Origin: Escherichia coli
Lineage (GTDB): Bacteria; Pseudomonadota; Gammaproteobacteria; Enterobacterales; Enterobacteriaceae
Assembly (NCBI RefSeq): GCF_016026235.1
Contig: NZ_CP065613.1
Strand: one strand, 5' to 3'
DNA length: 64,000 nucleotides
How positions within the stretch are numbered: the first letter of the stretch is position 1; every line of letters starts with the position of its first letter. The notes under the pieces were generated by a model. It was not told the origin of the DNA. It saw only the letters and a program-made list of their open reading frames with translations, and made no database searches. Below are positions 7,565 through 15,532 of this stretch, piece after piece. The translations under genes were made by a program, and so were the position numbers.

Positions 7565-7739
7565 TATTTTCTCTTTTCTGTTAATTATTGAGAATAATTA
7601 TTACTTCACTCAATAAGCTGCGGATATAACATTCTGAACCGCAGCTATTTGTGAATCCTTTCACAGTTTAAATTTCCCCACGCGCATAGCCTTAATATCA
7701 GCTCGCAATATTTATACTCTAAATAATTCGAGTTGCAGG

Positions 7740-13082: not shown

Positions 13083-14081
13083 TTATTTCTTGCTGAATTC
13101 AGCCAGGTTGTCTTTATCTACGCCAACATAAGGTACGCGGACCACTTTGTTGTCGATTTTCCAGTTGGTGCCATCAGCCGCACCTTTACCATCGGCCAGG
13201 TTTTTCGCCAGATCAAAGGTCGCTTTCGCCTGGTTGTTAGCATCGTTCAGTACGGTGCCCGCCAGTGCACCGGATTTCACCAGCGCCAGCGCTTCTGGCA
13301 GCGCATCGACGCCAAACACCGGAATGCTGGACTTGTTGTGTGCTTTCAGCGCTTCAACCGCGCCCATTGCCATCGCATCGTTGTTGGCGATAACCACTTC
13401 GATTTTGTTGGCGTTCGGGCCAGACAGCCAGGCGTCCATCTTATCTTTCGCCTGAGCGGTATCCCACATAGCGGTATCTAACTGTAACTGTTCAGTTTTA
13501 ATGCCTTTGTCGTTCAGCTCTTTAATCACGTAAGTGGTACGTGCTTCTGCATCCGGATGGCCCGGTTCACCTTTCAGCAGTACGAATTGAATCTGACCGT
13601 CTTTATTCAGATCCCAACCCTGATTCGCCGCCCAGTGTTTAGCAATCAAATCGCCTTGAATAATGCCGGACTCTTTGGAGTCAGTGCCAACGTAGTAGGC
13701 TTTGTCGTAGCTATCCAGCGCCTTACGAGACGGTTCTTTGTTAAAGAATACCACCGGCACATTTTGCCCACGCGCTTTCTCAATCACCGTACCCGCAGCT
13801 GCCGGGTCAACCAGGTTGATTGCCAGTGCCTTCACCCCTTTCGCCAGCAATACGTCGATCTGATCGTTCTGCTTGGACTGGTCATTCTGAGAATCATTCA
13901 TCAGCAGCTGAACATCTGGCGCGGCTTTCGCATCTTGCTCAATAGCCTTGCGCACTACAGACATAAAGTTATCGTCGTACTTATAGATTGTTACACCAAT
14001 GCGAGTATCAGCAGCGTGTGCAGCGGCACCGAATAACATGCTGGCCATCACAGCAGACAGGGTTAACACCTTCTTATTCAT
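13083..14081 (-). CDS. mglB: Periplasmic D-galactose/D-glucose-binding protein
   Basis: 332-aa ORF with signal peptide [23 protein letters not shown]. Confidence 0.95.
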
Positions 14082-14332
14082 GGTATCTCCGGTTTTTCTT
14101 ATGCAGGGTAGTGCTTGAGATAAATGCTCGGCGGGGCAGTAGAGTTAATGAAGTGTTACTGAACGCCGAAGCTCACTTTTTAAAATTCGTTCTTCCATGC
14201 CCGGTAACGCTCCAGAAAACGGCTTTAATTGTTGTTATGACGCTATTACCTCGGTGAAAGTGATTATTCACTGTTACATACGGGTTACAACGTTAAAACG
14301 GTGCAATCATAGCTATCACATTGTTAAGATAC

Positions 14333-14348
14333 TGTGAAATCACTCACA
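14333..14348. promoter_or_regulatory. CRP site of the mgl promoter (class II geometry)
   Basis: tgtga-aatcac-tcaca, a perfect CRP half-site pair; on the minus strand a TATGAT -10 lies about 30 nt downstream (plus 14306-14311). Confidence 0.6.
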
Positions 14349-14350
14349 GA

Positions 14351-14366
14351 TTGAAAGCGGTTACAT
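14351..14366. promoter_or_regulatory. GalR/GalS operator-like dyad adjacent to the CRP site
   Basis: Minus strand atgtaaccgctttcaa resembles gal operators (GTGTAAACGATTCCAC / ATGTAACCGCTACCAC); it overlaps the galS stop codon. Confidence 0.4.
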
Positions 14367-15401
14367 CGCCTGATTTGTTGAGTTAGTGATCGCTGCCGCA
14401 TTCTGGCGTGTTGCGACAGAATGGCGACGCACTAACGTCGGCATAAAACAGTGGCTGGCACGAGGATCAATATTGCCTGCTGCCCCCTGCAAGGCCAGTT
14501 CGGTGGCTAATTTCGCCATTGAAGCAATGGGATAACGCACGGTCGTTAATTGCGGGTCGGTGTAACGGGCGATGGGAATATCATCGAAACCGATGATTGA
14601 GAGATGTAACGGAATCGCAATGCCATTATCTTTTAATGCTGTCAGTGCGCCAGCAGCCATATTGTCGTTATAAGCAAATACAGCGGTAAGTTGTAGATTG
14701 CGCCCCAGCAGTTCAACCATCGCCGCCTCACCGCCCGGCATGTCCGGCGTACCAGTGCCAATCCAGCTTTCCGGCGGAATAATATCCTGCTCTTTCAACG
14801 CACTCATCCAGCCTGCTTTACGCATGGCGTCATCTTCAATGCCGTGGCTGGAAGAAAGATAACCAATACGTTGATGACCGTTATTCAGCAACATGCGCGT
14901 CGCCATTCGGGCACCGCTGAGATTATCCAGGCAAACGCAACGATGGGCGTACCCCGGCACAACGCGGTTGATTAACACCATACCGGGAATGTTATCCATA
15001 AATTGCGCCAGTTCATCGTCACTCAATGCTTTTGAGTGAACAATCAACGCATTACAACGCTGGCGAATTAACACCTCAATGGCGTGACGCTCTTTTTCCG
15101 CTTCATGATAGCTATTGCCGATTAGCACGTATTTCTGATGCTGCTGGGCGACCAGATCCACCGCTTTTACCAGCGCGCCGAAAAACGCATCAGAAACGTC
15201 CATCACCACCACGCCAATGGTGTCGCTAACCTGAGTTGCCAGCGCCTGGGCATTGGCGTTTGGCCGATAATCCAGCTCACTCACGGCTTTCATTACTGCT
15301 TCACGCGTGTCGGCACTGACCAGCGTGCTGTTATTGATCACCCGGGAAACCGTTGCCACAGAGACGCCAGCCTGACGCGCTACATCACGAATGGTGATCA
15401 T
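14361..15401 (-). CDS. galS: Galactose isorepressor GalS (LacI/GalR family)
   Basis: ORF 14361..15407; conserved start [21 protein letters not shown] (HTH) at ATG 15401. Confidence 0.95.
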
Positions 15402-15532
15402 ATTCACTACCTGTTAGTAAATGACTGCTTGCTGGCGGCTATTTTGTCAGCACTGAATACAGGACTTCGTGAATCGAGTCACAGCAATGGAAACGGTTAC
15501 AGCCGTTTTGTTAACGAATGTGATCCAGATCG

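Follow-up and report, generated by a model that had tools for sequence, protein, structure and literature searches.

In the lac system, the gene of a LacI-family repressor lies directly upstream of, and is co-directional with, the operon that it controls, and the stop codon of the repressor gene falls inside an operator that abuts a CRP site. CRP acts at lac from a class I position (-61.5), the main operator O1 overlaps the transcription start site, and O3 acts through looping. The promoter of galP is inactive without cAMP-CRP and GalR inhibits its CRP-mediated activation, an AND logic; galP has two operators and is mainly under the control of GalR. At the level of RNA, a number of mRNAs are repressed by Spot 42 (spf) and Hfq, and the mglB 5' UTR likewise contains, immediately ahead of the ribosome-binding site, a stretch that pairs with the Spot 42 5' seed; this pairing was validated in Salmonella, and the E. 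coli duplex is a prediction. The mglB promoter (mglBp) and the mgl operator of E. coli K-12 have themselves been assigned to the gal regulon (Hogg 1991; Weickert & Adhya 1993, both as represented in the papers that cite them).

In this study, we analyzed a 64-kb stretch of Escherichia coli DNA (hereafter the window), which contains the galS-mglBAC locus with all of its genes on the minus strand (Table 1). The locus shares with lac both the co-directional arrangement of repressor gene and operon and the repressor stop codon inside an operator that adjoins a CRP site. It differs from lac in that its CRP site is class II (-41.5) and its single operator is the main one, and from galP in that one operator stands beside CRP and the input function is monotonic in cAMP (Kaplan et al. 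2008). Window positions correspond to NC_000913.3 coordinates minus 2226267, a constant offset taken from the MG1655 annotation. Of 5426 complete E. coli genomes, 5425 matched an 801-bp query around the control region at an identity of at least 95%. The control region does not differ from the MG1655 sequence between the end of galS and leader position +43, and the locus has the gene order of K-12; the leader has three SNPs relative to MG1655 (14256-14255, CA versus TG; 14245, T versus C) and galS has one (14394), which is the last difference upstream of the control region, and none of the four falls in a regulatory site. We are highly confident in describing this as the canonical promoter of mglBAC, the galactose/glucose transporter operon of E. 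coli. An operator at the 3' end of galS, a class II CRP site and a long leader are all already known, having been published for exactly this locus, and as a discovery the result matters little, this being a classic and experimentally dissected promoter. Its relevance is practical: glucose-starved E. coli first adapts through sweeps of single-base changes at the mgl operator and CRP site.

Table 1. Coordinates of features in the galS-mglBAC control region (window positions)
Feature	Position	Strand	Basis
galS promoter-proximal operator, known galS autoregulation site	15487-15502	-	pattern match; GalR ChIP-chip
galS (mglD) CDS, 346 aa	14361-15401	-	ORF list; MG1655 b2151, 2240628-2241668
Second operator, inside galS	15344-15359	-	pattern match; GalR ChIP-chip
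mgl operator ATGTAACCGCTTTCAA, 16 bp, centre -59.5	14351-14366	-	sequence, GalR ChIP-chip, genetics, conservation
galS stop TAA	14363-14361	-	end ...CAG GCG ATG TAA; C-terminus ...NSTNQAM*
CRP site core TGTGAGTGATTTCACA, centre -41.5 (class II)	14333-14348	-	perfect TGTGA-N6-TCACA
-10 hexamer TATGAT	14306-14311	-	sequence
mglB transcription start (G), 218 nt upstream of ATG	14299	-	Kim et al. 2012
mglB 5' untranslated leader, 218 nt	14082-14299	-	start site and mglB ATG
5'-terminal hairpin, +1 to +66	14234-14299	-	predicted fold
Secondary 5' end, 140 nt upstream of ATG	14221	-	Kim et al. 2012: 2238510(-), 9 reads
17-codon ORF MEERILKSELRRSVTLH in leader	14145-14198	-	sequence
Predicted Spot 42 pairing region	14102-14128	-	windowed duplex scan
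Shine-Dalgarno GGAG (14090-14087) and mglB ATG (14081-14079)	14079-14090	-	sequence
mglB CDS, 332 aa (b2150)	13083-14081	-	ORF list and MG1655 annotation

For comparison with relatives, species-representative genomes were scanned with a codon pattern for the MglB motif YKYDDNFM, which yielded 120 loci. In 48 Enterobacterales and about a dozen Pasteurellaceae loci, mglB is immediately preceded by a galS-like gene in the same orientation, and no such gene was found in that position in the Aeromonas, Vibrio and Firmicutes loci of the scan. At all 48 Enterobacterales loci the CRP core has no mismatch, the operator has no mismatch at its 10 core positions and the centres of the two sites are exactly 18 bp apart, as against a spacing of mostly 19 bp in Pasteurellaceae. 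The promoter and leader were further aligned between the window and 23 other Enterobacteriaceae (24 sequences), in which the operator, the CRP site, TTAACA and CTATGAT form invariant blocks.

The CRP site carries a perfect TGTGA-N6-TCACA, a pattern that occurs twice in the 64-kb window where shuffled sequences led us to expect 0.03, and it is separated from the operator by a gap of 2 bp. A perfect CRP site at these positions had been proposed in the original prediction, and it is borne out by the minus-strand sequence; the core is invariant throughout the Enterobacterales set. The start site comes from the supplementary TSS table of Kim et al. 2012 (PMC3415461), which gives an mglB 5' end at NC_000913.2 2238588(-) with a 5' UTR of 218 nt and an upstream sequence that ends ...TATGATTGCACCG (...CTATGATTGCACCG). 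That 5' end is a G located 7 nt downstream of TATGAT, and its distance from the CRP centre at 14340.5 gives the value of -41.5 that defines class II geometry. The start evidence is one dataset with low counts, namely six reads at 14299 and nine at 14221. The prediction of a class II promoter with -10 TATGAT, a start near 14298 and a leader of about 215 nt thus agrees with the published mapping, being off by 1 nt for the start and 3 nt for the leader. The arrangement is also shared by relatives: CTATGAT is conserved across the 24 Enterobacteriaceae sequences, three of which have TATTAT or TATAGT; in all 23 related species the CRP site keeps its geometry relative to the -10, a G follows the -10 at 7 nt, and the inferred leader is 193-219 nt long.

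Published experiments point to the same promoter. The mglBAC operon is under cAMP-CRP control and its transcription in vitro requires regulatory proteins, Reg-Seq used the mglB promoter as a confirmed CRP site, and an adaptive mutation that Kinnersley et al. place in the CRP activator site maps at 2,238,630, which is window position 14341. This mutation, a G to T change at position 8 of the core, would represent a shift towards the CRP consensus. The invariance of the CRP site, its being hit by an adaptive mutation and the dependence of transcription in vitro on regulatory proteins all indicate that it is functional, and the published start is far from the mglB ATG. As a separate observation, the stretch from the CRP site to the -10 contains the TTAACA block (14322-14327, minus strand; -28 to -23), which does not vary among the 24 Enterobacteriaceae sequences of the alignment; its distance of 10 nt from TATGAT is too short for a -35.

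The larger number of reads at 14221 than at 14299 raises the question of whether the functional mglB promoter is instead one that fires at 14221 and produces a 140-nt leader, with the CRP/operator module acting from afar or on another transcript. The sole promoter-like match that a consensus scan returned in the region, TTGTAA-16-AATAAT at 14290-14263, could be cited in its favor, but the -10 of this match stops 42 nt short of 14221 and matches of this kind occur just as often as expected by chance. In the 24-sequence alignment neither a conserved -10 nor a conserved -35 was found ahead of 14221, whereas the CRP site, the -10 and the +1 G keep an exact class II geometry in 23 species, and mutations in the CRP site and in the operator alter mgl expression. 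In addition, 14221 lies in an A/U-rich single-stranded stretch 10 nt downstream of an abundant RNA 3' end at 14231, as expected for a cleavage site. We consider a promoter at 14221 very improbable; this 5' end is probably a processing site.

The operator matches the gal consensus GTGNAANC.GNTTNCAC at 10 of the 12 specified positions, with mismatches only at the outer positions 1 and 16, and positions 3, 5, 9 and 15, at which mutations inactivate gal operators (Qian et al. 2016), are all intact. By sequence statistics alone, however, the match is not significantly above chance: the window contains six gal-operator matches with at most two mismatches against 3.2 expected, and six or more were obtained in 7 of 100 shuffles. 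The operator is accepted because of its conservation, in vivo binding and genetics rather than its match statistics. In the GalR ChIP-chip data of Qian et al. 2016, a peak at NC_000913.3 2240625 (score 9.5) has the inferred site TTGAAAGCGGTTACA, which is window 14351-14365. Derepressing operator mutations at 2,238,647 and 2,238,648 of NC_000913.2 (Kinnersley et al.) correspond to window 14358 and 14359, that is, operator positions 9 and 8. The position 9 change, G to T, recurred across independent chemostat experiments and raised mglBAC expression, and one operator mutation obtained from glucose-limited chemostats, 3 bp from the end of mglD, is described as making mgl transcription semi-constitutive. 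The GalR/GalS-like dyad over the galS stop that had been predicted here is supported by conservation, by binding in vivo and by mutation.

Elsewhere in the window, an operator-like sequence inside mglB (13265-13280, plus strand; GTGCACCGGATTTCAC) has two mismatches to the gal consensus. In the 3C and in silico tables of Qian et al. 2016 it is this sequence that is named 'O (mglB)', while the real mgl operator at 14351-14366 is named 'OE (galS)', a naming inconsistency in the literature. A simple scan also returned a terminator-like hairpin on the plus strand at 14357-14369, GCGGTTACATCGC followed by CTGATTTGTT, in overlap with the operator and with the 3' end of galS. Both genes run antisense to it, the hit count is near the shuffle expectation, and it is probably a chance match.

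Taken with the published physiology, these sites describe a promoter at which RNA polymerase starts at 14299 in class II CRP-dependent fashion, with the CRP dimer at -41.5 standing in for a -35 element and working together with the -10 TATGAT. A single GalS or GalR dimer occupies the 16-bp operator, abutting the CRP site, and in the absence of galactose the bound repressor keeps CRP from activating. Galactose frees the operator of repressor, such that the operon is on only when high cAMP coincides with galactose or with lost repression. Repression may be achieved by steric competition with CRP, by occupation of the position that alpha-CTD would take upstream of a class II CRP, or by both. Kaplan et al. 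2008 observed that in this promoter the repressor and activator sites partly overlap, and proposed that they interfere with each other.

The galS stop codon occupies operator positions 4-6, within the left half-site, and this overlap had been called autoregulatory in the original prediction. The overlap itself is real, whereas no evidence was found that it regulates galS, which has operators of its own at GalR ChIP-chip sites 2241771 and 2241619 (Qian et al. 2016; Table 1). To compare relatives, the galS stop was located as the first in-frame stop at each locus. It starts 3 nt inside the operator in 15 of 48 Enterobacterales (Escherichia, Erwinia/Pantoea/Mixta and Acerihabitans), and lies upstream of the operator by 3 nt in two, by 12-19 nt in 26 and by 39 nt in five, so that the operator begins no more than 39 nt past the stop in all 48. 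In the Pasteurellaceae, the stop is 34-182 nt upstream of the operator at all 12 loci and overlaps it at none. Nearly all of the earlier stops share the frame of the operator TAA and are followed by a recognizable remnant tail. Most simply, the galS frame in the overlapping group runs on until it meets the TAA that is built into the operator half-site ATGTAAC, and the last five or so residues of GalS appear to be dispensable. In view of its restriction to 15 of 48 Enterobacterales, the overlap looks incidental and is best read as a by-product of a compact layout, neither under selection itself nor a conserved regulatory device.

The likeness to lac nevertheless suggests a device of the LacI-O3 type, in which GalS or GalR bound at 14351-14366 would block polymerase before it reaches the galS stop, giving a non-stop mRNA, SsrA tagging and degradation of GalS. 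The geometry matches, with a co-directional repressor gene and a stop codon inside an operator next to CRP, as in lacI-O3-CRP. A simple scan of the minus strand returned no intrinsic terminator, either in the leader or in the stretch from galS to the operator, and with no terminator before the operator galS transcription must run into the operator or its bound repressor; the close following of the operator on the galS stop throughout the Enterobacterales set would also be in keeping with such a block. There are precedents as well. A LacI roadblock at O3 yields a truncated lacI mRNA and an SsrA-tagged product (Semsey et al. 2013, where Abo et al. 2000 is cited for this), and in a 2026 preprint GalR bound in vitro to a gal operator placed inside an ORF truncated the transcript and triggered tmRNA tagging, which galactose reversed. 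The block by GalR was leaky and required micromolar GalR, however, and the preprint makes no mention of galS; lac O3 needs looping to O1 for an efficient block, dimeric LacI giving only a faint band, whereas mgl has a single operator. The confinement of true overlap to 15 of the Enterobacterales and its absence from the Pasteurellaceae loci also speak against it, as do the promoter-proximal operators that galS already has. The Term-seq tables of Adams et al. 2021 list no galS 3' end, and in contrast to lac our literature search found no report of a roadblock of galS transcription or of SsrA tagging of GalS. We regard such a roadblock as unlikely. For E. coli and the Erwiniaceae that share the overlap, it may tentatively be proposed, on the analogy with lac, that a fraction of galS mRNA would be stopless and nascent GalS tagged by tmRNA, an outcome to which we give a low probability. 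If true, the roadblock would add a second layer to the autoregulation of GalS, relieved by galactose and comparable to that of LacI at O3. The preferred reading of the overlap is still that it is an incidental consequence of compaction.

A 218-nt leader with a length held at 193-219 nt in Enterobacteriaceae and several conserved sequence islands could in principle be a structured cis-regulatory RNA that responds to a metabolite or to translation, for example as a riboswitch or as an attenuator of the leader-peptide or terminator type. Our analyses make this highly improbable. An Rfam search of the leader returned no family at E <= 1, the whole leader folds no better than shuffled sequence (z = -0.54), and a simple scan found no terminator-like site in it. 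The consensus fold of the 24 sequences amounts to just -6.4 kcal/mol with a covariation term of -0.21. Small conserved helices are present (AGUGA/UCACU at 14272-14259; GUUAC/GUAAC, 14208-14204 with 14159-14155; GGAAG/CUUCG within 14197-14166), in which 94% of cells pair and double changes occur in five pairs against 1.5 in shuffles, but these values are at most suggestive of selected structure, the helices having come from the same alignment on which they were tested, which inflates their support. The E. coli leader does contain a 17-codon ORF, which would be a candidate for a leader peptide; its ATG is ACG in most other Enterobacteriaceae and it is probably not a gene. Furthermore, the mgl promoter is conserved in Yersinia while its 5' UTR of roughly 250 nt is not (Csiszovszki et al. 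2011), that is, the Yersinia leader is unrelated in sequence. We accordingly rejected a riboswitch, an attenuator or a leader peptide as the role of the leader.

Structure prediction, which had been proposed as a check on the long leader, gave a divided result: the leader as a whole is unremarkable, and its 5' end forms a stable hairpin. The segment +1 to +69 folds with -16.9 kcal/mol and a z-score of -3.03 against shuffles, and in 22 of 24 species the first ~70 nt have a negative z-score and a comparable 5'-terminal hairpin is predicted, although the consensus fold of the alignment retains only the apical 5 bp of it. In the Term-seq data of Adams et al. 2021, a 3' end with 92,182 reads maps to 2240498(-), which is window 14231 (+69), 3 nt past the hairpin. 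Both its Rho score (0.44) and its intrinsic terminator score (1.47) are low, and the 3' end looks like that of a stable 69-nt 5' UTR fragment, not a terminator. Potentially, the leader is processed at about +70 to +79; its first ~66 nt form the 5'-terminal hairpin and survive within this abundant fragment, and the 5' end 140 nt upstream of the ATG is most likely a product of processing. The 5' hairpin may also protect the mRNA.

Two further features of the first part of the leader were noted. Each of the three SNPs that set this leader apart from MG1655 affects a base that is paired in the predicted 5' hairpin, and the pairing is retained (U-A and G-C instead of U-G and G-U, and G-U instead of G-C), a weak signal since all three are transitions. 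Two direct copies of TGTAAC, the hexamer of the operator left half-site, occur on the minus strand 11 bp apart at 14284-14289 and 14273-14278 (+11 to +16 and +22 to +27), and other genera retain them as TGAAAC/TGTAAC; since neither copy makes a full dyad, it is doubtful that a repressor binds to them.

The 3' part of the leader is more readily assigned a role. A windowed duplex scan gave its best result, -20.2 kcal/mol, for pairing with nt 1-22 of E. coli Spot 42, and the core of the predicted site, CTACCCTGCA (14111-14102; -30 to -21 from the ATG), shows no variation among the 24 sequences. The adjoining Shine-Dalgarno/ATG region of mglB, AACCGGAGATACCATG, is unchanged in 23 of the 24. In Salmonella, Holmqvist et al. 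2016 found that Spot 42 represses mglB through a conserved pairing in the 5' UTR, with compensatory mutations, at a site downstream of an Hfq peak. The E. coli mglB mRNA, with conserved seed complementarity near its ribosome-binding site, accordingly fits the class of Spot 42/Hfq targets, as far as the predicted duplex allows. Such a target immediately ahead of the ribosome-binding site would place mglB in a feed-forward loop of CRP and Spot 42.

Lastly, the window has one further perfect TGTGA-N6-TCACA, situated between yeiS and preT (7650-7665, plus strand; TGTGAATCCTTTCACA) about 101 nt upstream of the preT ATG at window ~7766. This site may belong to a CRP-dependent promoter of preTA.
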